From an uncultured Candidatus Saccharibacteria bacterium (lineage in GTDB: Bacteria; Patescibacteriota; Doudnabacteria; UBA920): a stretch of 64,000 nt of DNA. Positions 7,507 to 62,867 of the stretch are shown here, in pieces. Each line of letters starts with the position of its first letter. Position 1 is the first letter of the stretch. Position numbers and translations under genes: made by a program. The DNA is taken from positions 2,772 to 66,771 of the forward strand of contig CAZHIA010000005.1 of NCBI GenBank assembly GCA_964532425.1, read 5' to 3'. The notes beneath the pieces were generated by a model. It was not told the DNA's origin. It was given only the letters and a program-made list of their open reading frames with translations, and did not search any database.

Positions 7507-9249
7507 TTAGGATTCGTCGCCCATCTGCGCGTCGCTGACGGCTTGCCCCGGCACCTCTAAAGGTGCCTGGGTCTGCCGGTCCTCTCGTGCCGCAAGTTGC
7601 ATCCTGCTAATCTCCCGAACTTGGCTTGCGCCGCCTTCGAGCATCAACGGAATGTACTTAACGACCGAGTCGCTCCATCCGTAGATGAAGTGAACGCCCG
7701 GTTCGCCGAACGGTGCAACAGCCGCTTTGTACGGCGCGATGGTCACCAGGAACGCTTGCGCGTCCTGGTTCACTTCGCGCTTGTACTGGCGCCATTGATC
7801 GAGGAATGAACCAGAGCAATCGTAATCGCTCTGGCCATACGCCCAATCAACGTTGTCGGTGATGCCGATGAACGCATCCACGCGAACCTTACGTTCGCGC
7901 AAATACTGGATCGGCGCCCCGACAGCCGTGCTGCCACCGCAGTACCCAGCAAGTCGTTGCGTGACGGACATAATGTCGTCACGCTTCGACAGGCCATGGT
8001 CCGGGTGAACCCATCCGTCGAACGGGAGCAGGACAGCCCGATTCTCGATGCGCCGCAATAGTGCGCCGGAAAGGATACCACAGATATCGATGTAACGCGC
8101 AGTCCCCTTTTGGGAGACCCGCGAACTCATCGAGCCCGAGACATCAGATCCGATCGCAACCGTGCGGCTGCCGAAAGACGGCATGCAGGCAAAGGAAAGG
8201 TTCAGCGCTTCGCGGAGAGCATCCGCAATGCGGCTGTCCGGTTCCCAGTTGCCCGCGTGCACAGGTAGCTCGTCGTCAAACAGGGAATCAAATTCATTCC
8301 CTGCGCCGGACGAGTACTTCTTCCAGGCATCGAAAAACCGGAACGGCAGAACCTTCGAACGCTCGACCGCCTGAGGTGAGGTGAGCTTTTCCACCGCCAC
8401 CGCTACACTCTTCTCGTCCGCGAATACTCCATGGCGCGTAAACGCCGCGAGCATGCGCAGGAGATTCATGTACGGGGCTTGGCGAAGCAGCTCTTCCCAG
8501 ATCCTCAACGTCATCCGCTTCATTGCGGGAGCGACGACTTCGTACGGCAACCGGCCATCCTGAATCAGGGTGGCGGCTTCGTACTCAGTTGTCGCCCGCT
8601 TTAAAGCTTCGAACGCGCGGATCTGCGGGTTCAGTGCGGGATCGCTCCCGAGCGCATTCCCCCTTCGTACCAGCCAGTCGAGACGCTCGGCGACCGCGGC
8701 CGTTGCAGGGCGCGGGTGGGTCATGCGAATGAGATCGCGGAGTACGATGCCCTTGGACCGCTTGGATCCGTACTTCAGGGCATGGTATTCCGAGATGTTC
8801 GCAAGCCACCGTGCCACCGCTTTGGCAGCGTAACCGCCGAGGCCACGTTTGCCGGGGATCTGGCCCGAGATCAGGAAAGTTGAAAACTTTCGCAGATCGT
8901 CAGGAAGCAGAACCACGCGGTCGAACGCAGCTTCGAAAGCCTCGCGGGTTTTCCCGCGGCCGGCTGCGAGCAAGGCCAGCGCCTTGACGTTCTGATCCTT
9001 AATGAGCCCCTTGGTGCGGCCGTAGACAACGGCCTTGGCCAGGAACTCCGGATCAGTGTCGCGCGCTCCGATGATCGTCTCCTGCCACTGTTCGTCGAGT
9101 TGACGCTTGGTGGCATAGAACGTATCACCGAAGACACCGACTGTCAGGAGCTGAACTACGCGCTCGCGCAGCGATCGGTTGTAGGCGGGCGCCCCCTCGT
9201 GGTTCACAAGGGACGCCTGGACATTGGCGAGAGTCGAAGTCTGTGTCAT
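7507..9249 (-). CDS. rsr: Ro60/Rsr ortholog (TROVE domain + C-terminal vWA with MIDAS DVSGSMSS)
   Basis: The N-terminus NHEGAPAYNRSLRERVVQLLTVGVFGDTFYATKRQL parallels the Rsr motif NxAGGFVY..RLDRFLILGSEGGTYY. The MIDAS-type motif IGSDVSGSMSS is present. SD AAGGAG before comp. ATG 9249. Confidence 0.82.
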   Translation of the reverse strand: MTQTSTLANVQASLVNHEGAPAYNRSLRERVVQLLTVGVFGDTFYATKRQLDEQWQETIIGARDTDPEFLAKAVVYGRTKGLIKDQNVKALALLAAGRGKTREAFEAAFDRVVLLPDDLRKFSTFLISGQIPGKRGLGGYAAKAVARWLANISEYHALKYGSKRSKGIVLRDLIRMTHPRPATAAVAERLDWLVRRGNALGSDPALNPQIRAFEALKRATTEYEAATLIQDGRLPYEVVAPAMKRMTLRIWEELLRQAPYMNLLRMLAAFTRHGVFADEKSVAVAVEKLTSPQAVERSKVLPFRFFDAWKKYSSGAGNEFDSLFDDELPVHAGNWEPDSRIADALREALNLSFACMPSFGSRTVAIGSDVSGSMSSRVSQKGTARYIDICGILSGALLRRIENRAVLLPFDGWVHPDHGLSKRDDIMSVTQRLAGYCGGSTAVGAPIQYLRERKVRVDAFIGITDNVDWAYGQSDYDCSGSFLDQWRQYKREVNQDAQAFLVTIAPYKAAVAPFGEPGVHFIYGWSDSVVKYIPLMLEGGASQVREISRMQLAAREDRQTQAPLEVPGQAVSDAQMGDES

Positions 9250-9497: not shown

Positions 9498-10286
9498 TAT
9501 TTCAAAGTGCAAAAGGCTAATAAAAACAGGTATCGCAAAAATGCGTATACCCGATTTACTTTCCTTTACCAGAATCGCTACCTGTATACCGATCCTGATA
9601 AAGGAGGGGTGGCTTTTCGGGCCACCCCACAGGTGTCGCCCCCGATCTTCGGGCAGCGAGTTCCCATGGTTCCTCCTTTTAGGCATGATTGTCTCGAAGT
9701 ACCCCCAACGAGCAGTCCTCCCCCCCGATTTGCACCGGGGATCAATGGACATATTTGCACAAGGCTTGTATTCGTCAATTGGATTGAAGTAGCCTCGTGG
9801 TGTATTCCTCCTCCCGCTTTACTGTTACGGGGATCAACGGATATTGTGCTAGGGGTGGTGTAGCTGTTTGCGGCGGGCCGGACCTCGTAGGCACTTTCCG
9901 GGCGCGTTTCGCCCGGCTCCCCGTCTGGTCCGCAAGGCCGCCCCGCTCTTTCACGAGAGGGACGGCAGACGATGTATTTGTCGAAGTATCCTCGCTTTGC
10001 TGTTCTCGTCCTTCGGTTTCTCTCGAGCTCTCATTCCATCCTCAGAACTTGCCAGCCGCTGCTGGACAAGCCGCCTTAAGATGATTTGATCTCGAAAGAA
10101 ACGGGTGAAGGAGTCAACGAACGAATTCGCAAGGAGTAAAGGCTTCGAGAAATATCCCGCCGCTTTTGCCCCAGGGATTTCAGGTCGGGCCGGATCATCC
10201 GGCTTGCCCTGCCCTGGTTTTACCTGCTCTCGATGAACAGGCGGCTCAGCTCCCTTTCGGGAAAGCTTTTGGGGCATGTTTTGATT

Positions 10287-23379: not shown

Positions 23380-23485
23380 ATTGAACAAAATTTAAAAAAT
23401 TGACAAAATTGACAAAATTGTGGTTACAGGCTGCAGTTTAATTTTGTCAATTTTGTTCAATTGTGTCATTTTTGTCAATTCCCTT
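23380..23485. promoter_or_regulatory. E1: ~105-bp element of 10-bp-phased TTGACAAAA direct repeats then inverted ATTTTGTCA repeats, abutting the dnaE ATG with no SD
   Basis: Near-identical to 45421-45526 upstream of recR apart from ~15 central nt. Confidence 0.65.
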
Positions 23486-26400
23486 ATGTCTTTCACCCAC
23501 CTCCACTGCCATAGCCATTATTCCCTGCTTGACGGTCTGTCCAAAACGGACCAGCTGATTTCGCGTACCAAGGAGCTCGGCATGGACAGCCTGGCTTTGA
23601 CCGATCATGGGGTCATGTACGGGACCATAGAATTTTATACTGAATGCATCGCTGCTGGAATCAAGCCGATCATTGGACTTGAAGCCTATATTGCTCCGCG
23701 CCGGTATACGGACAAGGAAGGTAAGATAGATGCGGACTATTTCCATCTGACATTGCTTGCCGAGACGTATGAGGGGTACAAAAACCTCATCATGCTGACC
23801 ACGGAAGCGCACATCAACGGTTTTTATTATAAGCCGCGGGTGGACACTGAGCTGCTCAAAAAATATAGTAAAGGCCTCATTGCACTTTCCGGCTGCATGC
23901 GCGGCGAAATTCCCCGCGCGGTTATGAATAAGTCCGAAGAAGAAGCCCAGAAAGTCCTGGAAAAATATTTGGATATTTTCGGGCGGGGCAACCTGTATAT
24001 CGAAATTCAGCGCAATGCCCGCGGTTATGACGAAAAAGAAGCGGAACTGAACACGCGCTTAGTAGAATTCGCCGGCAAGAATGGATTGCCGCTGGTGGCA
24101 ACTTCTGATTGCCATTATATCAATTCGGAAGATTATGAAGCGCAGGATGTTCTGGTCTGCATTGGTACCGGGCGGAACGTCAATGACACGGACCGGCTCG
24201 ACATGCGCGCCTATGATCTTTCCTTAAAATCGCCGGAACGCATGGCGGAGTTGTTTTCCGATCTCCCGGAAGCCGTCGAGAACAGCGCAAAAATTGCAGC
24301 GCGCTGCCAGGTTGAAATTCTTATTGACCAGCGTTATTTTGCCAAGATGGAAATTCCGGAAGGCTTTACCGTAGCTGACTATCTAAAAAAACAGGTGTAC
24401 GAGAAGGCAGTGCCGATTTACGGCGACAAGGACGGCAATTTGCCGCAGAACGTTGTTGACCGCATTGAGTATGAGCTTGGTATTATTTCCAAGAAAGGGT
24501 TTGATTCGTATTTCCTCATGGTGGCGGATATTGTGCAAGGCGCGCACAGCATTGGTGCCATTACCAACACCAGAGGGAGCGCAGCCGGTGCGATTATCGG
24601 CCATATTCTGGGAATCAGCCACATTGACCCGTTGTATTACCAGCTGCCATTCGAGCGGTTTTTGAACCCGTACCGACCGACGCCGCCCGATGTCGACTTG
24701 GATATTTCCGATCAACGCCGCGATGACGCCATCGCCTGGATATCGAATCGGTTTGGTCAGGACAAGGTTGCCCAGATTATCACGTTTGGAACAATGAAAG
24801 CGCGCGCGTCCATCCGCGATGTGGGCCGCGCTTTGGGAATTCCGTACAGCAAGTGCGACCAGATCGCCAAAATGATTCCCATGGGCAAGCAGGGGTTTGA
24901 TATGACGCTGCAGAAAGCCATGGAAATGAATCCGGAGTTTAAAGAGATCTATGACCGCGATCCGGACACGAACCGCATCGTTTCCATTGCCCAGAAACTC
25001 GAGGGCGGAGCGCGCCATGCGTCCATCCATGCCGCGGCTATTGCCATTACGCCTACTCCCCTCACCGATTACACGCCCTTGCAGCTGGAACCTGACGGCA
25101 CGCGCCATATTACGCAATATGACATGTATGCGCTCGATGCCGGTGCGTCCAGCAAGGCCTTAGGGGTGATCAAGATGGACTTGCTTGGTATCCGCAACCT
25201 GTCTATTCTTGAGCAGGCGGTCAAAATTACGGAAAAGCGCCGCAACGTAAAAATTGATATTTACAATCTCCCCCACCCTGATCCCAAAACCTTTCAATTG
25301 CTTGCCGATGGCCACACGTTTGGTGTGTTCCAGCTGGCCAGCTCCGGCATGACCCGGTATCTCAAGGAACTGAAACCAAAGGATATTTTCGATATCATGG
25401 CTATGATAGCGCTTTACCGTCCGGGGCCGATGAGTATTATTCCTAATTACATCGCGCGCCAGCACGGCAAGGAGAGGGTTGATTATTTTGATCCGCGCAT
25501 GAAGGATTACCTCAGCCGTTCACTCGGGCTGTTGGTCTATCAGGATGACGTTTTGCTGACCGCAGTCAATATAGCGGGCTACACCTGGGAAGAAGCGGAC
25601 AAGCTGCGCAAAGCTATGGGTAAAAAAATCCCGGAAGAAATGGCCAAACAGAAGGTCAAGTTCATTGACGGCTGCGTCAAAGCCGGTATTCCGCCGGCCC
25701 GCGCGACAGACCTGTTCGCACAAATCGAGCCATTCGCCGCGTACGGGTTCGGGCGCGCGCATGCTGCATCGTACAGCATGGTCTCCTACCAGACCGCGTA
25801 TATGAAAGCCAACTATACTGTGGAGTTCATGACCGCGCTCATGACTGCGGAAAGCGGCGATGAAACCAAAATTTATGCGGCCGTGGACGAGTGCAAGAGC
25901 CTCGGCATTGCCGTGTTGCCGCCCGATGTCAACGAGTCCCGCGGTGACTTTACCGTGGTGGACGACAAAACCATCCGGTTCGGGTTGAATGCCATCAAAA
26001 ATTTAGGATCTGACGTGGTAACCTCCATTATTGCCAGTAGAAAGGATGGCGGCCCATTTGCCGACCTTCAGGATTTTCTCATCCGCGCCCATACCAAAAC
26101 CATGAACAAAAAATCATGGGAAGCTTTGGTCAAAGGCGGGGCGCTCGACCGCTTCGGTGAACGCGGACAATTATTAGCCAACACCGAAGAGGTTCTCGAT
26201 TACGTCCGTGAGCATTTTAAAGCTGAAATGAGCGGTCAGAATTCCCTTTTCGGCAAGAGCCTGGGTATGGGCAAATTAAAATTGAAAGATTCACCACCGG
26301 CAACCAAGGAAGAAGCCATGGCTTGGGAAAAGGAACATTTGGGATTGTATGTTACCGCTCATCCGCTCGATAACTACCGCCAGGTCTTGTCCGGTTTTAC

Positions 26401-26944
26401 AAACTTTAAAGATTTGACTGTTGACAGTCTCGGCCAGTTCGTGGTCATGGGAGGGTTGATTACCAAACTCAAACGCATTTTTACTAAGAAGAATGATCCA
26501 ATGGCGTTCTTTACCCTGCAAGATACGACCGGGCAAATCGAAGTTTTGGTATTCCCGAAGACCATGGAAAAGGTTTTGCAGTTTCTAGCCGAAGACCGCG
26601 TGGTCCAAGTCTCGGGCAAGCTTTCGGACAAGGATGAGGAGTTCAAGCTGTTAGCTGACGAGATAAAAGATCTGCCGAATGACGAACTCTATACGATGGC
26701 GCTTTCTGAAATGGAACGGAAAAAACAGGTGGTCCTGCATATGGAATCTCTCGCCAACATGGAAGCCTTGAACAGAATCAAAGACATTCTGCAGGCTAAC
26801 CCCGGTAACGCCCAGGTCTATTTAAGCCTCGGTTCAGGTGGGGCGGCCAAGCGCATCAAGACCCAAAGCCAGGTACGCATCTCGCAGGACCTGATGAAAC
26901 TGCTGCGCGAAGTGCCCGAGGTGGTGATGGTGGATATAAATTAG
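23486..26944 (+). CDS. dnaE: DNA polymerase III alpha subunit
   Basis: Begins MSFTHLHCHSHYSLLDG (PHP domain). The ORF-track start at 23420 is an upstream in-frame extension through element E1. Confidence 0.9.
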   Translation: MSFTHLHCHSHYSLLDGLSKTDQLISRTKELGMDSLALTDHGVMYGTIEFYTECIAAGIKPIIGLEAYIAPRRYTDKEGKIDADYFHLTLLAETYEGYKNLIMLTTEAHINGFYYKPRVDTELLKKYSKGLIALSGCMRGEIPRAVMNKSEEEAQKVLEKYLDIFGRGNLYIEIQRNARGYDEKEAELNTRLVEFAGKNGLPLVATSDCHYINSEDYEAQDVLVCIGTGRNVNDTDRLDMRAYDLSLKSPERMAELFSDLPEAVENSAKIAARCQVEILIDQRYFAKMEIPEGFTVADYLKKQVYEKAVPIYGDKDGNLPQNVVDRIEYELGIISKKGFDSYFLMVADIVQGAHSIGAITNTRGSAAGAIIGHILGISHIDPLYYQLPFERFLNPYRPTPPDVDLDISDQRRDDAIAWISNRFGQDKVAQIITFGTMKARASIRDVGRALGIPYSKCDQIAKMIPMGKQGFDMTLQKAMEMNPEFKEIYDRDPDTNRIVSIAQKLEGGARHASIHAAAIAITPTPLTDYTPLQLEPDGTRHITQYDMYALDAGASSKALGVIKMDLLGIRNLSILEQAVKITEKRRNVKIDIYNLPHPDPKTFQLLADGHTFGVFQLASSGMTRYLKELKPKDIFDIMAMIALYRPGPMSIIPNYIARQHGKERVDYFDPRMKDYLSRSLGLLVYQDDVLLTAVNIAGYTWEEADKLRKAMGKKIPEEMAKQKVKFIDGCVKAGIPPARATDLFAQIEPFAAYGFGRAHAASYSMVSYQTAYMKANYTVEFMTALMTAESGDETKIYAAVDECKSLGIAVLPPDVNESRGDFTVVDDKTIRFGLNAIKNLGSDVVTSIIASRKDGGPFADLQDFLIRAHTKTMNKKSWEALVKGGALDRFGERGQLLANTEEVLDYVREHFKAEMSGQNSLFGKSLGMGKLKLKDSPPATKEEAMAWEKEHLGLYVTAHPLDNYRQVLSGFTNFKDLTVDSLGQFVVMGGLITKLKRIFTKKNDPMAFFTLQDTTGQIEVLVFPKTMEKVLQFLAEDRVVQVSGKLSDKDEEFKLLADEIKDLPNDELYTMALSEMERKKQVVLHMESLANMEALNRIKDILQANPGNAQVYLSLGSGGAAKRIKTQSQVRISQDLMKLLREVPEVVMVDIN

Positions 26945-28515: not shown

Positions 28516-29361
28516 TTAAAGCGACTCGGCGCCGGCAACTACAAACTTGCCGGTATCGTTCTTCTTCATGGTTACTCGGATCTTGAATCCGTTGAAGGTC
28601 AGCGCCTGGCTGCCGCCGCCGACATCTTCAATCTTGTTCGGCATGCCGCAGCGAGCCATAACCTGCTCGCTATTCAAGCCCATCAGGCTCATGAGCGAGC
28701 ACCCGGTAGTTTGATCCGGACTAACCGCTGCAACTGCGACTGCGACTGGAGTAGCGTTGCTTACCGGCTTCTTAAATCCCGACACTGGTTCGATCACTTC
28801 ACTCATCTTTGCCCAGACTTCATCGGGAGTTGCTTTTTCCAAATACCCCGGGGGGAACTTGAAATGGATTTGCGAGGCCAGAAGCTTTTCCTGATCGTGG
28901 TGATCCATGCGGGTGACCGCCGAAGAGACCGTTACCCGGACCGTAGTCGCGTCCTTGACCACGAGTTCGCGGATTACCACGGTTTCTCCTGGCCGAAACG
29001 CGGTTGCGCCGGTGCGGACTGCTTTCAACCCGGTCATGGCCGAGTTCTTCAGCATGCTGCCAAACCCGGACTTCTTAGCAGGTGCAGTCGGGTCGGAGAG
29101 GGCAATTTGCCCTTCATAGTACCAGCACTGCGGCGCACTGCCGATGTCGTTCATCAGCAGGTCGCTGGCCGGGACCTGCGCGGCTTTGATCAGGAACGTT
29201 GTCCCTGTCATAGCCTTGGTCGTCGGGTTAACCATGGCGACCGAAGCTGACATTTTTTCTTCGAGCCCCGTTTGCCACGGTTCTTTTTCCGCCCGCGCGT
29301 AGCCGGCGGGAATGACAACTGACGCAATTCCAATCACTGCCGCAAACAATTTCGTCGTCAT
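28516..29361 (-). CDS. hypothetical secreted protein (signal peptide, 281 aa)
   Basis: N-terminal MTTKLFAAVIGIASVVIPAGYARA is a signal peptide. Preceded by a consensus promoter. Confidence 0.6.
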   Translation of the reverse strand: MTTKLFAAVIGIASVVIPAGYARAEKEPWQTGLEEKMSASVAMVNPTTKAMTGTTFLIKAAQVPASDLLMNDIGSAPQCWYYEGQIALSDPTAPAKKSGFGSMLKNSAMTGLKAVRTGATAFRPGETVVIRELVVKDATTVRVTVSSAVTRMDHHDQEKLLASQIHFKFPPGYLEKATPDEVWAKMSEVIEPVSGFKKPVSNATPVAVAVAAVSPDQTTGCSLMSLMGLNSEQVMARCGMPNKIEDVGGGSQALTFNGFKIRVTMKKNDTGKFVVAGAESL

Positions 29362-29416
29362 CTGAGTATCCTCTTTTCCCTTTTGAAATTCCGGCTACGC
29401 CGGTATTGCTGACCAC

Positions 29417-29445
29417 ATTATACTCTTAAAAGACGTTTTTGTCAA
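29417..29445 (-). promoter_or_regulatory. consensus sigma-70 promoter (TTGACA, 17-bp spacer, TATAAT) for 28516-29361
   Basis: TTGACA comp. 29445-29440 and TATAAT comp. 29422-29417. Confidence 0.6.
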
Positions 29446-29523
29446 GGGAAACTGGCACTTATTGCTGTTTTTTCGCTTAGTTATAAAATAATCATCGTGA
29501 CGAATAACTGTGGAAAACATGCT

Positions 29524-29552
29524 TGATTTTGGTTAATAATATTGTTATAATG
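29524..29552 (+). promoter_or_regulatory. sigma-70 promoter TTGATT, 17-bp spacer, TATAAT
   Basis: Drives the non-coding transcript 29559-29834. Confidence 0.55.
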
Positions 29553-29558
29553 TTTTTG

Positions 29559-29834
29559 GTTCTTCAAACGAAACCCCTGCACCAGTCATCCGCAAGGATT
29601 CCGGTACAGGGCAGAGCTGGTTACCACCCAGGGAGTTTGAAACAAATATATAGTCTGGATGTTTCTAGAGGACATCCAGATGAAAAGTCCAGCTCTTTCT
29701 TAGAAAGAGCGGGAGAACTGGGACGGAAACGTCTTTGGTTCGTAGGTCCGCTTCGGCGGATCCGAAGCCAAGACCCCAGGGTCGGTCCACCGCTTTGCCA
29801 ACACGGCAGCGCGGGGATCCAACCCTGGGGTTTT
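29559..29834 (+). ncRNA. candidate ~270-nt structured ncRNA or cis-regulatory leader, from promoter to intrinsic terminator
   Basis: No SD-led ORF. Hairpins GGATGT..ACATCC, GCTCTTTC-TTAG-GAAAGAGC and a CCGC-UUCG-GCGG tetraloop. Terminator CCCCAGGGT...ACCCTGGGG+TTTT at 29774-29834. The word ACAGGGCAGAGCTGGTTACCACCCAGGG is faintly reminiscent of the RNase P P5-P7 region. Confidence 0.4.
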
Positions 29835-29888
29835 GTGTAATTCAAGAGATATTTACTCGCAATTTCGAATTACGCATTACGAATTTTT

Positions 29889-30611
29889 ATGAAATATGAA
29901 TTACGCGGGGATGAAGTGCTTAATGAATTAGCCGAGCGCGCTAAAGCCCGGGCGGAGTATTTAAAAGGATTGGAATTCCGTCATCCTTCGTACGAAAAGC
30001 AGAAACTGGAGACGTTATTCGGTTTCCGCGAACAAATTTTGAAATTTTTAGAGCAATTTTACGGGACGCTCTATGTCAGGTATAAGAAGAATGATGCGGA
30101 TTTGGAACTTGATGTCTCCCAGCCAGATGTCGGGCAATATCTGGATCCCCTGCTCCAAAGAGTCGAACAGATGCTCGACCAGACCGGATTCTTCCCTCAC
30201 AAATTTTCAACTATGCCGGGGTCGGGTCACGGGGACAAGCTGGTAATTTCAAAGATTGACTCAATCTATTACCAGACCGCCGAAGGGATCACGTTCCGGC
30301 TGCGCAAGGCCAGTGCGTATGAATCAGGAAGATTGAGGGAAATGGTTCAGCCACTGTTCGAAAAGGCCGTTTTCCAAAATGACAATCGAGATTCCAGCGA
30401 GCAGCCACAGCTCGGATATCGGGTTTACGAAGCATCTACTACGGATTTTTTTGACCTGCAACAGGCATTTCGTAAAACCGGCAGATCCGTAAAATATTTT
30501 TCTCCTTTGCGGCTTTACTATGACAAAGGCAAGCTGGCAACTATTGACGCGGACAATCCGCAGAAATTAGAGATACATACGGGAGATATGGTCAATAAGA
30601 TATACAATTAA
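29889..30611 (+). CDS. hypothetical protein (240 aa) flanked by 28-bp inverted repeats
   Basis: Left repeat CGCAATTTCGAATTACGCATTACGAATT at 29858-29885 and right repeat AATTCGTAATGCGTAATCCGCAATTG at 30639-30665. No SD. Confidence 0.55.
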   Translation: MKYELRGDEVLNELAERAKARAEYLKGLEFRHPSYEKQKLETLFGFREQILKFLEQFYGTLYVRYKKNDADLELDVSQPDVGQYLDPLLQRVEQMLDQTGFFPHKFSTMPGSGHGDKLVISKIDSIYYQTAEGITFRLRKASAYESGRLREMVQPLFEKAVFQNDNRDSSEQPQLGYRVYEASTTDFFDLQQAFRKTGRSVKYFSPLRLYYDKGKLATIDADNPQKLEIHTGDMVNKIYN

Positions 30612-30684
30612 ATACAATTTTGGATTGCGGATTGGGTTTCAATTCGTAATGCGTAATCCGCAATTGTCAGTAATAAATACTACC

Positions 30685-32520
30685 ATGGATAAATCTGAAA
30701 AATTACATAATATCCGCCACTCGCTCGCCCATATCCTGGCTAGCGCGGTGCTCGAGATGTTCCCAAAAGCCCAGCTCGGCGTGGGTCCGGTTATTGAGAA
30801 TGGTTTTTACTATGATTTTTTGCTCCCCCGCGCCCTGACCCCGGAAGACATCAGCAAACTCGAAAAGCGCATGCGCGCCTTAGTCCAATCCAAACTGCCC
30901 TTTGAGCGCAGCGAAATGCTGGCTCAGGAAGCCAAGGCATTTTTTAAAGCAGCCGGCCAGCCGTTTAAGGTGGAATTGGTGGAGGATATTGAAAAGTATG
31001 GAACCACCAAGGCTGATGAAATTTTAAACAATGAAAAGGCTGCTGTAGGGGCGGCCAATGGCCGCCCGCAAGGCGAGAAAGAAAAAATTTCTCTTTATAA
31101 AACCGGCAAGTTCATCGACCTCTGCCGCGGCGGGCACGTGGACAACACCTCACATATCAAGACTGATGCATTTAAGCTCGACAAAATCTCTGGAGCCTAT
31201 TGGCGCGGTGACCAGAAGAATCCTCAAATGCAGCGCATTTACGGCATCGCGTTCGAAACCAAGCAAGAGCTCGAGGGCTACATCAAGCTGCAGGAAGAAA
31301 TCGCCAAGCGCGACCACCGCATTCTAGGGCCTAAGCTCGGGCTGTTCCTCTTCCACGAGCTTTCTCCCGGCATCCCTTTTTACCAGCCCAAGGGTATGAT
31401 CGTGCGCAATGAGCTGGAGAAATTCGTGCGTGAGTATTCATATGGTACCGGTTATCAGGAAGTCAAATTGCCACAGATGTTCGATGCGGACCTCTGGAAG
31501 ACCTCGGGACATTGGGACCATTATAAAGACGATATGTTCGTATTCAAAGTAGAAGGCCGTGATTTTGCCCTAAAACCCATGAACTGTCCCGGACACTTCA
31601 CGCTATTCAAGCAGGGGTTGTACAGTTATCGCGACCTGCCGGTCCGCTTTGCCGAAATGACGACCTTATTCCGCAATGAGCTGTCCGGAGCGTTGTCCGG
31701 ACTCACCCGCGTCCGCGGATTTGCCCAAGATGATTGCCATATTTTCCTTTCGCCTGATCAGATCAGCGACGAGGTGGCCGATCTGCTCAAGCGCATTAAA
31801 AAGATCTATTCCGTCTTCGGCATGAAGATTGAAGATGTCTATCTGTCCACCATGCCGGAAAAGGCGCTTGGTACGGAAGAGGAGTGGAAGCAGGCCGAAG
31901 CTGCCTTGGCCAGCGCCTTGAAAAAAGCGAAGTGGGACTTCCAAATCAACCCTGGCGACGGCGCGTTCTACGGGCCGAAGATCGACATGCAGATTAAGGA
32001 TGTACTCGGCAGAAAGTGGCAGCTAGCCACGGTCCAGCTTGATTTCCAAATGCCCAGAAGATTCCAACTGGAATACGTGGCACAGGATGGTACCCGAAAG
32101 ATGCCTGTAGTCATCCATCGCGCGCTCATTGGTTCGTTCGAGCGATTCTTCGCTATTCTCATTGAACACTATGGCGGAGCTTTCCCGCTCTGGCTCTCCC
32201 CTGTCCAGGTTGCCGTGCTGCCGATATCCAAAAAACAGAATAAGTACGCACGTGATGTGGTAAAGATGTTAACTGTAAGGACAGGTCGCGACCTGTCCCT
32301 ACCGGACCTGCGGATAGAAGTAGATGACCGCGATGAATCCATTGGCAAAAAGATCCGCGAAGCGACTATGCAAAAAATACCATACCAGTTGATTTTGGGC
32401 GAAAAGGAAATGAAGTCCAAGAAAATTACCGTGCGCACACGCGAAGGCAAGGACCTGGGAGCGGTACCAATAAAGAAGTTTGTGCTGAAATTGCAGGAAC
32501 AACTGGCAAAAAAGAAATAA
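30685..32520 (+). CDS. thrS: threonyl-tRNA synthetase lacking the N1 (TGS-like) domain. Starts at the N2 editing domain
   Basis: Strong collinearity with E. coli ThrRS from HSxAHxL onwards. Class II motifs and the anticodon-binding domain are present. Start ATG 30685 is preferred over the ORF-track TTG 30625, which would run through the inverted repeat. Confidence 0.88.
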   Translation: MDKSEKLHNIRHSLAHILASAVLEMFPKAQLGVGPVIENGFYYDFLLPRALTPEDISKLEKRMRALVQSKLPFERSEMLAQEAKAFFKAAGQPFKVELVEDIEKYGTTKADEILNNEKAAVGAANGRPQGEKEKISLYKTGKFIDLCRGGHVDNTSHIKTDAFKLDKISGAYWRGDQKNPQMQRIYGIAFETKQELEGYIKLQEEIAKRDHRILGPKLGLFLFHELSPGIPFYQPKGMIVRNELEKFVREYSYGTGYQEVKLPQMFDADLWKTSGHWDHYKDDMFVFKVEGRDFALKPMNCPGHFTLFKQGLYSYRDLPVRFAEMTTLFRNELSGALSGLTRVRGFAQDDCHIFLSPDQISDEVADLLKRIKKIYSVFGMKIEDVYLSTMPEKALGTEEEWKQAEAALASALKKAKWDFQINPGDGAFYGPKIDMQIKDVLGRKWQLATVQLDFQMPRRFQLEYVAQDGTRKMPVVIHRALIGSFERFFAILIEHYGGAFPLWLSPVQVAVLPISKKQNKYARDVVKMLTVRTGRDLSLPDLRIEVDDRDESIGKKIREATMQKIPYQLILGEKEMKSKKITVRTREGKDLGAVPIKKFVLKLQEQLAKKK

Positions 32521-39213: not shown

Positions 39214-39266
39214 ATAAATTCACTACCCGCGGGTAGTGAATTTTTTGTGAGGCCGTATGAAACGAA

Positions 39267-39653
39267 TTAGTCTAATTCGGATGACAGTTCCAGTTCGATA
39301 GGCTTCCATTCGACGGGATTGCCATTTGTGCCAGCCAAACCGAGTGCCGCTTGGTGGCCTGATTCGGACAGGCGTGCGACAATCTCAGAGAGCACGAGAA
39401 GGTTTTCGTAACCTGGCACGACCAACCGGGTTTTGTACCCGTTGCCGTTCATGAGTGGCCCGTGCTGGACCACTTGAGGCTCCCCCTCCTGTTCGCGTTC
39501 GAACCACAACCGGTCCGATTCGATGTTCGACAGGAGATGGTCAATTTGAAATCCCATCGACTTGAGAATGGTGTTTACTTCTGCCGTGGTGGCGCTTGTG
39601 GCGCATACGGTGATACCAGTGAATTGGCTGTTTGCCGTTTCCGTTTGGAGCAT
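39267..39653 (-). CDS. hypothetical protein (128 aa)
   Basis: ORF only. Confidence 0.45.
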   Translation of the reverse strand: MLQTETANSQFTGITVCATSATTAEVNTILKSMGFQIDHLLSNIESDRLWFEREQEGEPQVVQHGPLMNGNGYKTRLVVPGYENLLVLSEIVARLSESGHQAALGLAGTNGNPVEWKPIELELSSELD

Positions 39654-39755
39654 TCTGCCTCCTTACGGAAATAGTGTAGAACGGGAACCTTCAGAACGCA
39701 AGGGCGGATTGGACCAGTAAATCCAATTACGGCCGAAATATGCTAAAATACGTAT

Positions 39756-41138
39756 ATGCTCAAAATCTACAATACACTAGCAAAACGCTTAGAGGATGTA
39801 AAAAACACCGGCAAGCTGAATATGTATAGCTGCGGGCCCACGGTGTATAACTATGCGCATATCGGTAATTTGCGCAGCTTTGTTATGGCCGATTTGCTCT
39901 ATCGCACACTGAAAGCCGAAGGATACGGTCCCCGATGGGTCATGAATATTACGGATATTGAAGACAAGATCATGAAGGCGGTGCTGGCCAAATACGGGCC
40001 GTCAGCCACGGTTACAGATCTGCGAGAGTATACCAAATTTTATCTCGACGCCTTTCTGGATGATTTGCGGCACGTTAACGTGAGCGTGGACGAGATCGAA
40101 ATTATCCGCGTCACCGATGTCATCCCCCAGATCCAGGACTTTATTGTTGAATTGATGGACAAAGGGTTTGCTTATAAAGCGGAAGACGGCAGCACGTACT
40201 TCAGCATCGAAACGTACCAGAATCAATTCCATGATTACGGGTCGCTCGTTGGCGAAAAATTCATTGAGGGCAAGAAGATAGGCGCCCGGGTCAAGGTGGA
40301 TGAATATGACAAAGACAACTTGAGTGATTTTGCCTTGTGGAAAGCCGCTGAAGCTGCTGACGGACAAATTTTTTGGGACCATCCCGTGCTCGGTAAAGGA
40401 CGGCCAGGCTGGCACATAGAGTGCTCGGTTATCAACCGAGTCGCATTCGGCGATCATACGACCGACATTCATACCGGCGGAGTGGATCTGGTTTTCCCGC
40501 ACCACACAAACGAAACAGCCCAGACGCAGCCGCTCTATCGTCCCTTCGTCAATTGCTGGCTGCATAGCGAACATTTGCTCGTGGATGGCAAGAAGATGAG
40601 CAAAAGCCTTGGCAATATTTATACATTGAAGGATCTGGAAGGAAAGGTTCGTACACCCGGACGGAGCCTACGTTATTTCTATCTCCAAGCCGGATATGAT
40701 GTCCAGTTGAATTTTACTTGGGAAGGACTCAAAGCCGCGGACAAATCGCTGAACTCCATTTCGGATAGTATCTCGTTCGGCACGAGTGCCAAGGAGAGCG
40801 CGCCGGTCTATGAAGAATTTTTATCGGCGCTTGATGGTAATCTCAATTCCGCTAAAGCTTTGGCTGTTGTTTGGAAAACTATTCGGGATGAAAAACTGGA
40901 CGTGAATCAAAAGACCGAATTGCTCGAAAAATTCGATGCTATTTTAGGACTTGGGCTCTTGGATCAGCAGGAAGAGGAAGAAGTGCCTGCAGATGTGGCC
41001 GCGCTCCTCGAGCAGCGACAAACAGCCCGGCAGCACAAAGACTTTGCCTTATCCGACCAGCTGCGTGACAAGATCGCCGACTTAGGCTGGGAGGTTATGG
41101 ATACTCCTGAAGGGCAGAAGGTGGCTAGGAAAATTTGA
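39756..41138 (+). CDS. cysS: cysteinyl-tRNA synthetase
   Basis: HIGN (HIGH) and KMSKS motifs plus Zn-binding Cys context. Confidence 0.9.
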   Translation: MLKIYNTLAKRLEDVKNTGKLNMYSCGPTVYNYAHIGNLRSFVMADLLYRTLKAEGYGPRWVMNITDIEDKIMKAVLAKYGPSATVTDLREYTKFYLDAFLDDLRHVNVSVDEIEIIRVTDVIPQIQDFIVELMDKGFAYKAEDGSTYFSIETYQNQFHDYGSLVGEKFIEGKKIGARVKVDEYDKDNLSDFALWKAAEAADGQIFWDHPVLGKGRPGWHIECSVINRVAFGDHTTDIHTGGVDLVFPHHTNETAQTQPLYRPFVNCWLHSEHLLVDGKKMSKSLGNIYTLKDLEGKVRTPGRSLRYFYLQAGYDVQLNFTWEGLKAADKSLNSISDSISFGTSAKESAPVYEEFLSALDGNLNSAKALAVVWKTIRDEKLDVNQKTELLEKFDAILGLGLLDQQEEEEVPADVAALLEQRQTARQHKDFALSDQLRDKIADLGWEVMDTPEGQKVARKI

Positions 41139-60949: not shown

Positions 60950-62290
60950 TTATTTCTTAATCACATCTTTGCCTACAAACGGTTTCAGTACGTCCGGTAC
61001 CACGACTGATCCGTCCTGCTGCTGGTAGTTTTCGAGGATGGCAATCAGAATCCGAGGGCTGGCAATAACGGTGTTATTCAGCGTGAAGACATGTTTGGTT
61101 TTGCCGTCTTGAGTCTTATATTTGATGTTCAAGCGGCGGGCCTGCCAGTCAGTGAGATTTGAATCCGAGTGTGTCTCGCTGAAGGCATTTCTCGACGGCA
61201 TCCAGGTCTCAAGATCGTACATCTTGTACTTGCCCGCACCCATATCTCCCGTGCAAATATTCAAGACGCGGTACGGGAGCTTCAAATCCTGCAGCATTTC
61301 TTCCGCAATCTCACGAAGCGTTTCCAGCCACTTGTCGCCTTCAAGAATATCGGCTTTGCAGAGAATGACTTGTTCGACTTTCATGAATTCATGCACGCGG
61401 TAAATACCCTTGGTGTCCTTGCCGTAGCTGCCGATCTCGCCGCGAAAACAAGGCGAGACTCCGCAGAGCCGGACAGGCAGATCTTTTTCTTCCAGGGTCG
61501 TGTCAGCATAATAAGCTAGCAGGCTCGGCTCAGAGGTACCAGCCAGATACGTTGGTTCGGTTACTCCTTTTTGGATTTCTTCCTCCGTAAGTACTTGGTA
61601 CTGGTCAGCTTTGCCAAACGGAAAATGACCGCTGCCATAGAAGGCGAAGGGTTTATCGAGGATCGGCGGTACCATGAGCGTAAAACCTTTAGCCTGCATT
61701 TTCTTTAAGGCATGCCAAATCAGGCCATACTGCATGAGCACAGCTTCATTTTTGAGATAATAACCCCGAAAACCTGCTGTTTTAACCCCGGCTTCGGTAT
61801 CGATAAGATCGAGCGCTTTACCGAGCGTCATGTGGTCTTTAATCTCGTAGTCGAACTTATTCGGTACCTGTTTGACCTTCTCTTCTTCTTTGGGGTCGAC
61901 ATGGCCTAAAGCAGGGCTCCAGTAGCTCCACGGGACATTGCCGGTTTCGTCTGGACCGATCGGGGTTTCCGGACTCGGAATGTTCGGAACCAAGTACATA
62001 AGGTTATCGAATTCAAGCTCAATTTCGTCCACCTTCTTTTTAAGTTCCGTGGTTTTGGTATCGACTTCCTTCATTTCTAAGAGTTTAGCCTGGCGGTCTT
62101 CGGGGGAGAGTTTGCCAATCTCTTTGGAAAATTGATTCTTAGCTGCCTGCAGGCTTTCCAGTTCCGTGAGCAGGTCGCGCCGTTTTACGTCAACATCGAG
62201 CAGGTGGTCAATGTCAAGATCGATTCGTTTGTTCTTAACAGCTTCTTTGACTTTGTCCGGATTATCGCGGACGAATTTAATGTCTAACAT
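60950..62290 (-). CDS. serS: seryl-tRNA synthetase
   Basis: N-terminal coiled-coil arm and class II motifs 1-3. Confidence 0.9.
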   Translation of the reverse strand: MLDIKFVRDNPDKVKEAVKNKRIDLDIDHLLDVDVKRRDLLTELESLQAAKNQFSKEIGKLSPEDRQAKLLEMKEVDTKTTELKKKVDEIELEFDNLMYLVPNIPSPETPIGPDETGNVPWSYWSPALGHVDPKEEEKVKQVPNKFDYEIKDHMTLGKALDLIDTEAGVKTAGFRGYYLKNEAVLMQYGLIWHALKKMQAKGFTLMVPPILDKPFAFYGSGHFPFGKADQYQVLTEEEIQKGVTEPTYLAGTSEPSLLAYYADTTLEEKDLPVRLCGVSPCFRGEIGSYGKDTKGIYRVHEFMKVEQVILCKADILEGDKWLETLREIAEEMLQDLKLPYRVLNICTGDMGAGKYKMYDLETWMPSRNAFSETHSDSNLTDWQARRLNIKYKTQDGKTKHVFTLNNTVIASPRILIAILENYQQQDGSVVVPDVLKPFVGKDVIKK

Positions 62291-62426
62291 AGTAAGTAGA
62301 AAGTTATCAAGTTATAAAGTAGAAAGAGAAAACAGAATAAAATAATTCAAAATTATTCCCCCACAGGGGAGGTGCGGTCTTTGATTTCGGTTGGAGAAAG
62401 AGTTAGGTTCATGTTGATATACTCGA

Positions 62427-62867
62427 TCACAAATTGAGAAGCTCAACAACTTGTTCGCCTTTTTTGAGCAATGTATAGTTTTGAAGTTCGGAAATTGGGA
62501 TATATCGGAGCTCTGCTATTTTACTGTCAAACTTGTTGGTGTGTAGTTGTCCGCCGATAGCTTTGCATTCATAGCATGCAATGATGGTCTGAATCTGCTC
62601 TCCGGTGTTCTTGGTCCAATTGTTCGTTAAGATTTTGGGGAGCAATCTTATAATCTCCACCTCAAGTCCAGTTTCTTCCTTGGCCTCGCGTATAACGGCA
62701 TCCTCGGGTATCTCGCCAAACTCGATCTTTCCCCCGACAAATTCCCAGGTGTCATGTGCTTCGGAAATGTCAGGATCGATCCTCCGCGCAAGTAGCAAGT
62801 CCCCCTGATCGTTCCGGATTACCGCAATGACAATGGGGATTAGCTTTTGTTCCGTGGTGGAATTCAT
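62427..62867 (-). CDS. NUDIX hydrolase
   Basis: Nudix box GGKIEFGEIPEDAVIREAKEETGL. Confidence 0.8.
   Translation of the reverse strand: MNSTTEQKLIPIVIAVIRNDQGDLLLARRIDPDISEAHDTWEFVGGKIEFGEIPEDAVIREAKEETGLEVEIIRLLPKILTNNWTKNTGEQIQTIIACYECKAIGGQLHTNKFDSKIAELRYIPISELQNYTLLKKGEQVVELLNL

Follow-up and report, generated by a model that had tools for sequence, protein, structure and literature searches.

A conserved thrS leader RNA of Patescibacteria, probably a T-box descendant without the UGGN sequence

Introduction

The textbook example of an RNA that reads both the identity and the charging state of another is the T-box. To our knowledge, all mechanistic and structural work on T-boxes rests on the UGGN-NCCA helix, and that on the transcriptional ones also on a long Stem I that grips the tRNA elbow. 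The thrS gene of E. coli has a translational operator, at which ThrRS regulates its own synthesis by mimicry of the anticodon arm of tRNA-Thr. Here we describe a 277-nt RNA upstream of thrS in a 64,000-nt stretch of DNA (the window) from an uncultured Candidatus Saccharibacteria bacterium (assembly GCA_964532425.1, contig CAZHIA010000005.1, positions 2,772 to 66,771 of the forward strand), which an earlier note had flagged as a promoter-to-terminator transcript. Based on its sequence and its relatives, we consider it quite probable that this RNA is a cis-acting transcription-attenuation leader of thrS and a descendant of a T-box.

In T-boxes, the UGGN in the antiterminator bulge pairs with the NCCA of the tRNA, the tRNA docks on a specifier, and uncharged tRNA stabilizes the antiterminator (PMC7778990, PMC11297988). 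The leader in the window would be a natural and conserved terminator-based T-box relative that has neither UGGN nor a long Stem I. A literature search returned no paper on T-boxes in Patescibacteria or the candidate phyla radiation, and the T-box collection TBDB was built from RF00230 and one model for Actinobacteria only (PMC7778990).

Results

A conserved non-coding leader of thrS

The transcript flagged at 29558-29834 is a real, conserved and non-coding leader of thrS (Table 1). A search with nhmmer using the window RNA matched the gap between dnaE and thrS in two further loci, L083 and L086, and their shared blocks were built into the pattern TTCTAGAG-N-GATGAAAAG-N-CTGGG. The scan of JGI metagenomes with this pattern gave 28 stretches, which were 13 true members and 15 chance matches in coding DNA, and one further member (L124) was reached independently via a ThrS homologue. 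The class, which we call variant leaders, has 17 members including the window and a length of 192-336 nt, and all of them lie between dnaE and thrS, with the order dnaE-gap-thrS conserved in the relatives. The thrS gene was found downstream on the same strand in all 15 members with enough sequence, and also in L124. The 16 relatives have 65-71% identity to the window in DnaE, and the strict linkage to thrS, although ThrS is only 40-88% identical, was counted in favor of a thrS leader. The terminator lies 34-850 nt 5' of the thrS start codon across members, and its distance to the ThrS match was at most about 130 nt in most members and about 250-500 nt in six. The covariance model R1, built from ten short members, found exactly one copy per locus, and neither R1 nor nhmmer found a leader in the thrS neighborhoods of 80 unrelated genomes (1.34 Mb; ThrS identity up to 53%). 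ThrS homologues of 62-76% identity have source names such as Candidatus Doudnabacteria or Patescibacteria group, which point to a bacterium of the candidate phyla radiation; the placement in Patescibacteria/Doudnabacteria is based on such names at 62-71% identity. The earlier note had staked the element on its presence in relatives, and the 16 homologues bear it out.

Two types of thrS were seen behind the variant leader, one in L104, L107, L108, L109, L115 and L117 and the other in the window, L083, L086 and L101, with a ThrS identity to the window of 40-47% for the former vs 75-88% for the latter. This suggests that thrS was replaced while the leader was kept.

The promoter TTGATT-17-TATAAT of the earlier note is present, one base away from the 29524-29552 given there. 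Promoter-like matches alone were not more frequent in the region than expected by chance (4 observed vs 3.0 expected), and the -35/-10 pair is kept in all homologues as a promoter of the TTGC...TGTTATAAT type at the same distance to the 5' end of the RNA. The -10 box and a conserved start, (A/G)GUUCUUC, were the basis for inferring that 5' end. The terminator is conserved across homologues like the promoter. The hairpins described in the earlier note are well formed, including the UUCG tetraloop on a CCGC/GCGG stem (29749-29760), and the fold of 29558-29836 had -131.9 kcal/mol against -89.9 ± 5.5 kcal/mol for dinucleotide shuffles (z = -7.65), with none of 200 shuffles as good. The long terminator with UUUU also ends 55 nt before the next ATG at 29889, as had been reported, and the inverted-repeat-flanked gene and thrS follow in that order.

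The claim that the transcript has no coding open reading frame (ORF) was confirmed by the homologues. A TTG-started ORF of 105 aa (29523-29840) overlaps the RNA, with its start inside the -35 box; it has no Pfam match and is not conserved, since most homologues have several stops in every frame, and leader-peptide attenuation and a coding role of this ORF were rejected. A P1 helix (GGUUC with GAACU) from the minimum free energy fold of the window was also dropped, because it is not kept in members of the L096 type.

A TGTGGA(A/T)AA(C/G) box stands 5' of the -35 box in the variant-class leaders with upstream sequence (three copies in L118), whereas L122 and L123, two of the minimal T-box loci described below, do not have it. 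The box may serve as a binding site for a regulator or as an UP-like element.

Table 1 Features of the thrS leader locus in the window (all on the + strand)
Feature	Positions	Sequence or parts	Basis or remark
Upstream box	29509..29518	TGTGGAAAAC	About 5 nt 5' of the -35 box; conserved
Promoter	29523..29551	-35 TTGATT, 17-nt spacer, TG-extended -10 TATAAT	Promoter scan
Non-coding leader RNA, 277 nt	29558..29834	5' end GGUUCUUC to terminator U-tract	Fold and homologues
Stem I	29563..29641	Base helix UUCAAAC (29563-29569) with GUUUGAA (29635-29641)	Encloses inserted arm and specifier hairpin
Lineage-specific arm in Stem I, 5' side	29574..29611	CCCCUG...CAGGG	Homologue comparison
Specifier hairpin	29617..29631	CUGG-UUACCAC-CCAG; Thr codon ACC at 29623-29625, then A	Loop conservation, covariation
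A-rich linker	29642..29652	ACAAAUAUAUA	ACAAAU... conserved in variant and minimal classes
P3 hairpin	29653..29681	8-nt loop UUCUAGAG at 29663-29670	Helix 3: 94.7% paired, compensatory changes in 7 of 10 pairs
Single-stranded junction	29682..29687	GAAAAG	Invariant in window, L083, L086 and the independently found L124
P5 hairpin	29688..29714	Variable sequence; position of T-box Stem III	Helix 4: 92.4% paired, compensatory changes in 9 of 9 pairs
Antiterminator (ON)	29718..29779	A1, CUGGG 29718-29722 with CCCAG 29775-29779; bulge ACGGAAAC 29723-29730; A2, 29731-29774	Alignment, constrained fold
Anti-antiterminator hairpin H (OFF)	29720..29735	GGGACG-GAAA-CGUCUU	RNAalifold consensus
Intrinsic terminator	29774..29834	CCCCAGGG...CCCUGGGG and UUUU	Helix 6: compensatory changes in 14 of 24 pairs
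Insert between leader and thrS	29853..30673	33-nt inverted-repeat arms 29853-29885 and 30641-30673	Arms stand around ORF 29889-30611
thrS, presumed regulated gene	30686..32520	Probable start ATG 30686	Pfam tRNA_SAD, tRNA-synt_2b, HGTP_anticodon

Minimal T-boxes in the sister clade

In a sister clade (DnaE 57-61% identical), a leader of 130-145 nt was found at the same position between dnaE and thrS. Its sites are L092 5641-5770, L122 2825-2968, L123 2812-2965, L091 5843-5978, L089 5849-5979 and L087 about 9700-9850. A typical one reads AGUUCUU-AAGGCG-CUGAU-CCGG-CUACCAA-CCGG-GGAG-CCUUAAAC-AACCUAAAG in its 5' part and UUUGGG-UGGAACC-GUUC...GAAC-CCCAAAG...CUUUGGGGUUUU in its 3' part. These minimal leaders have a very short Stem I with a 7-nt terminal loop showing ACC and then A, a linker of about 15 nt, a canonical GGGUGGAACC antiterminator of textbook T-box form (GGGUGGNACC) and a terminator, and they are without Stem II or Stem III.

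The variant and the minimal leaders have in common the 5' end (AGUUCUU), Stem I, the specifier loop (CUACCAA in the minimal ones), the ACAA linker and the terminator type, and R1 scored the minimal leaders at E values of 1e-13 to 1e-18. Because of these shared parts and scores, the flagged RNA is T-box-derived as judged from sequence comparison, that is, it appears clearly homologous to a T-box riboswitch. The differences are that the minimal leaders are shorter, have no P3/GAAAAG/P5 domain and keep the canonical UGGAACC bulge. They also have only weak potential for hairpin H, where the latent hairpin has three G-U pairs and a GAAC loop; it is exactly the changes U to C and CC to AC relative to the sister UGGAACC that provide H with its C-G pair and its GAAA loop.

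The earlier note had thought of a T-box through the thrS gene downstream. The link itself stood, through the thrS linkage, the Thr specifier and the sister T-boxes, but the imperfect T-box word AGGGUCGGUCCACCGC cited for it did not, as that word is inside the terminator stem and is conserved in no homologue. The true T-box counterpart is CUGGG-ACGGAAAC-GUC at 29718-29733.

Antiterminator, bulge and hairpin H

The 3' domain has two alternative folds. In the first, CUGGG/CCCAG and GUCYY/RRGAC form the antiterminator helices A1 and A2 and compete with the terminator stem CCCCAGG.../...CCUGGGG; in the second, hairpin H (GGGACG-GAAA-CGUCYY, 6-7 bp with a GNRA cap) occupies the 5' strands of both antiterminator helices and is mutually exclusive with them. 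In the terminator/antiterminator analysis, which the earlier note had proposed, each of the 16 aligned sequences could adopt the OFF as well as the ON fold, and the promoter-terminator geometry of a riboswitch or leader, which it had also pointed out, is supported by the conserved thrS linkage and this antiterminator alternative. For the whole OFF structure, 93.6% of cells pair and 36 pairs have double changes, values that none of 500 shuffles reached, and slid controls were about 50% paired. H was 95.5% paired with only G-C to G-U changes. A1 was paired in 16 of 16 aligned sequences, and three pairs of A2 have compensatory changes; in the window, A2 is a long, lineage-specific helix capped by the UUCG hairpin. 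The 5' strand of A2 has a pyrimidine at alignment columns 313 and 314 in all sequences and its partner switches between A and G, unlike pairs elsewhere in the RNA, which flip freely. A strand locked to pyrimidine opposite a covarying partner is expected if both H and A2 constrain it.

The bulge reads ACGGAA(A/G)C in all 17 members, and it was not part of the search pattern. Its sole variant, GAAG in L108, is still GNRA, and the GGA of the sister UGGA is retained in register. Their conservation indicates that the bulge, the specifier codon and the antiterminator complementarity are under purifying selection. In energy terms, the OFF state (H and terminator) of the window had -70.6 kcal/mol vs -28.8 kcal/mol for the constrained ON fold of the 3' domain, and four other members had the same order. 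An OFF state far more stable than the ON state is expected of a kinetically controlled attenuator.

Stem I and the specifier

Stem I consists of 7 + 5 pairs and shows the codon in its terminal loop. The base helix (helix 1), which is also present in the sister-clade minimal T-boxes, was 90.6% paired, with compensatory changes in two pairs, and the specifier stem covaries, with such changes in four of its five pairs. The loop is xxACCA(A/C) in 17 of 17 variant leaders and 6 of 6 distinct minimal T-boxes; the window at 29617-29647 reads CUGG-UUACCAC-CCAG-GGAGUUUGAAACAAAU. The codon thus matches Thr and is followed by a purine, and its display in a terminal rather than an internal loop is atypical. 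The leader has no long Stem I that bears, as in class I, a distal platform of interdigitated T-loops for the tRNA elbow; the arms at the junction are variable and absent in ten members.

The arm in the 5' side of Stem I is missing in the 10 short members, and arms of different sequence stand at the equal position in L120, L124, L105, L107 and L083. The 5' internal loop of Stem I is an insertion hot spot: GAAA-[variable hairpin]-CAGAG replaces G(U/C)UGAU in the window, L120 and L124, much larger Stem I inserts are present in L083 and L107, and L086 has an insert of about 120 nt after the linker. A nearly identical module of 42 nt, AGCCCGCCUUGCCUCGUAAAAGCGAAAGCAAGUCGAGGCAGG, was also observed between the transcription start and Stem I of three leaders (L083 9327-9368, L104 about 7803-7845, and L118 on the minus strand just 5' of 5720). 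Its fold has a z of about -2.6 to -3.3, a pseudoknot is possible, and Rfam gave no match to it.

The inserted P3/GAAAAG/P5 domain

Between the Stem I linker and the antiterminator, about 65 nt are inserted that form the P3 hairpin, the single-stranded GAAAAG and the P5 hairpin, and the sister-clade T-boxes have no counterpart of this domain. The UUCUAGAG loop of P3 is identical in the window, L083, L086 and L124, which were found without it as a search term. The UUCUA of this loop fits the bare U-N-N-N-A spacing that is the rule for a T-loop pentad, which is no test of a T-loop. The domain probably supplies extra tRNA contacts, and, as a speculation, the T-loop-like P3 loop may compensate for the lost U-A76 pair and the missing elbow platform. 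In T-boxes, RNase P and the L1 stalk, interdigitated T-loops stack on the tRNA elbow (PMC4810234).

The thrS locus in the window

Upstream of the leader stand dnaE (23420-26944) and two ORFs without Pfam match, the second of which (28516-29361, minus strand) is preceded by a perfect divergent promoter of its own. The insert between the terminator and thrS has 821 bp. Its inverted-repeat arms are 88% complementary, unique in the window and composed of short ATTACG(C/A)A and GCGGATT-like units, and the orphan ORF of 240 aa between them matched only itself among 5.8 billion proteins and had no Pfam or PHROG match. A mobile insert is one possible reading of this segment; another is a long-range RNA helix within the 5' untranslated region of thrS. 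The start ATG of thrS was chosen because the N-terminus MDKSEKLHNIRHSLAH of ThrS matches its homologues. The window sequence is also present in the Logan assemblies of SRR11567520 and SRR11567528.

Lineage-specific short repeats fill the spacer between the terminator and thrS in many members (among L107, L117, L118, L108, L111, L100 and L109), with units such as ACGAAT (about five times, L107), GCGGAT (L117), ACGCTGA (L118) and GATTT(G/A)AG (L108 and L111).

Elsewhere in the window, no T-box-like leader was found upstream of cysS (39214-39755, with cysS at 39756) or serS (62291-62470, with serS at 62290 on the minus strand), and within the 64-kb window the putative tRNA-sensing leader is specific to thrS. 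The minus-strand ORF 7507-9249 encodes a Ro60-like protein (TROVE and Ro60 vWA domains). A Y-RNA-like non-coding RNA is usually located close to Ro genes of bacteria, and Rfam reported none in the window.

Discussion

Most likely, the leader senses tRNA-Thr to control thrS, and it most likely works in the same general way as T-boxes even though it has no UGGN and no Rfam score. The choice between OFF and ON is grounded in sequence, covariation and energy, while we infer the docking of the tRNA and the tRNA-stabilized ON state. In the proposed mechanism, the anticodon GGU of tRNA-Thr would pair with the ACC that the short Stem I shows in its terminal loop, which resembles an anticodon loop. The 3' domain would by default adopt hairpin H and the terminator, and the ON state would be A1 and A2 with the bulge ACGGAAAC open. 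As in T-boxes, uncharged tRNA-Thr would stabilize the ON state, with U73-C74-C75 pairing with the GGA of the bulge (the sister bulge UGGA implies U73 as the discriminator), and once H opens, RNA polymerase would read through into thrS. The variant may thus have traded the U-A76 pair for a stronger default-OFF element and then added the P3-P5 domain to regain affinity.

Several observations weigh against a tRNA-sensing leader of this kind. RF00230 did not match the leader even at E ≤ 10; this test is weak for the lineage, because RF00230 also misses the canonical-looking minimal T-box in L092 at that threshold. UGGN is absent from every conserved unpaired segment, so the T-box signature AGGGUGGNACCGCG with UGGN is not found, and the C opposite A76 would leave only 3 bp for the pairing with NCCA. 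ARAGORN found no tRNA or tmRNA in the window and 20 loci, which gives no tRNA-Thr discriminator base for comparison. A1 and the conserved loops never vary and therefore give no covariation signal, and the search pattern imposed UUCUAGAG, GAUGAAAAG (likewise the GAAAAG junction) and CUGGG in 13 of the 17 members. In the window itself, 852 nt separate the terminator from thrS. Besides the orphan ORF, this interval contains a weak promoter-like site (30589-30618, 9/12 matches), and the control of thrS by the window leader may be partial.

Part of this evidence also fits a composite or re-wired switch, an unlikely reading in which Stem I recruits tRNA-Thr and the 3' domain no longer reads NCCA. 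The UUCUAGAG loop, GAAAAG and ACGGAAAC would then form a pocket for another signal, such as threonine, an alarmone, ThrRS or an intramolecular contact that depends on tRNA docking, for example of the P3 loop UUCU with the GGAA of the bulge, which are complementary as read from the sequence. Such a switch would explain why UGGN was lost and yet about 22 unpaired nt are invariant across lineages with diverged helices, and why the new domain of about 65 nt has no counterpart in the sister-clade T-boxes. However, GGA, the partner of U73-C74-C75, is retained in register, no Rfam aptamer matched, and the ACC specifier is still under selection, so that tRNA remains the ligand for at least one step; covariation speaks neither for nor against any tertiary pair. 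That this T-box lineage dropped the otherwise universal UGGN-NCCA readout, and that a new module (the T-loop-like UUCUAGAG hairpin, the GAAAAG junction, the CGGA bulge and the GNRA anti-antiterminator) senses charging or a second signal by a mechanism undescribed for T-boxes, is a tentative idea that we regard as possible and rather doubtful.

The independent small RNA of the earlier note, here taken as a trans-acting RNA or as a decayed T-box that acts as a constitutive terminator in front of a thrS with its own promoter, seems very unlikely. The strong terminator, the OFF state about 40 kcal/mol more stable than ON, and the ORF and weak promoter-like site 30589-30618 between terminator and thrS in the window would suit it. 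But in all cases thrS follows the element directly and in the same orientation, across two ThrS types, and the terminator has an antiterminator alternative; in most members the ≤ ~130 nt between terminator and thrS leave no room for another promoter, and in a decaying element with covarying helices, the specifier, the bulge and the antiterminator complementarity would not stay invariant. We give hardly any credence to the idea that the leader is a reduced RNase P RNA, or some other housekeeping RNA (6S, SRP, tmRNA), that has diverged too far for Rfam, although RNAs of the candidate phyla radiation are often divergent and P3 followed by GAUGAAAAGUCC resembles the RNase P P3 followed by GAGGAAAGUCC (CR-I). 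Rfam 15, the covariance search suggested earlier, gave no relevant match in the whole window at the gathering score or in seven related loci, and at E ≤ 10 on 29300-30000 it gave only junk, with no RNase P, 6S, SRP or tmRNA model among the scores; ARAGORN likewise found no tmRNA. The word ACAGGGCAGAGCUGGUUACCACCCAGGG, in which a loose likeness to RNase P P5-P7 had been seen, combines the last part of the lineage-specific arm with the specifier hairpin and varies among homologues, so this likeness is due to chance. The marks of a bacterial RNase P (CR-I to CR-V, a P4 helix, about 330-400 nt and a model score) were not found in the leader, and a reduced form from P3, GAAAAGUCC and GAGAACUGGGAC was rejected, since its P4-like pairing, read from the sequence, fails in L086. 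The sister-clade genomes also carry a plain T-box at this place instead, which a housekeeping gene would not allow.

With a thrS leader of T-box descent as the preferred reading, the variant leader and its small canonical sisters (130-145 nt) amount to an evolutionary experiment on the minimal needs of tRNA-charging sensing, and the pair also informs how a default-OFF hairpin gets built into a discriminator. The minimal sisters are of interest by themselves as very small T-boxes; if the reading is true, the leader and the 130-nt sisters would place the smallest transcriptional T-boxes in Patescibacteria. RF00230 and the RF00230-based TBDB miss T-boxes of Patescibacteria, which means that the riboswitch content of reduced genomes may be under-counted.

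Compared with class I T-boxes (RF00230; thrS, tyrS and glyQS of B. subtilis), the window leader is likewise the leader of an aminoacyl-tRNA synthetase gene, with a cognate specifier codon followed by a purine and with an intrinsic terminator and an antiterminator of two helices around a bulge that exclude each other, and its homology to them runs through the sister-clade leaders that bear GGGUGGAACC. It differs in that it has no UGGN (the bulge being ACGGAA(A/G)C) and a Stem I of about 12 bp, which shows the codon in the terminal instead of an internal loop, has no double-T-loop platform and no recognizable Stem II or IIA/B, carries an extra GNRA hairpin and gives no RF00230 score. Class II or truncated Stem I T-boxes (ileS of Actinobacteria, M. 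tuberculosis) also have a short Stem I without elbow T-loops, for which extra elements located between it and the discriminator are considered to compensate (PMC11297988, PMC4810234). Those T-boxes act on translation by sequestering the Shine-Dalgarno sequence, keep UGGN and have Stem II and the IIA/B pseudoknot (PMC11297988, PMC4810234), whereas the window leader is terminator-based, its inserted domain is unrelated and its bulge is altered.

The E. coli thrS operator likewise belongs to a thrS leader and has a hairpin whose 7-nt loop resembles an anticodon loop, but the loop in the window shows the codon ACC, which complements the anticodon and does not mimic it, and control would be by a terminator and not at the ribosome-binding site; no NGU-mimic loop beside a ribosome-binding site was seen in the leader. 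With S-box/SAM-I riboswitches and trp-type attenuators, it has in common a three-helix exchange of H (1:2) and terminator (3:4) vs antiterminator (2:3). In those systems a ligand or the ribosome acts on the anti-antiterminator, whereas here tRNA is presumed to do so, and the exchange would be grafted on a T-box discriminator.

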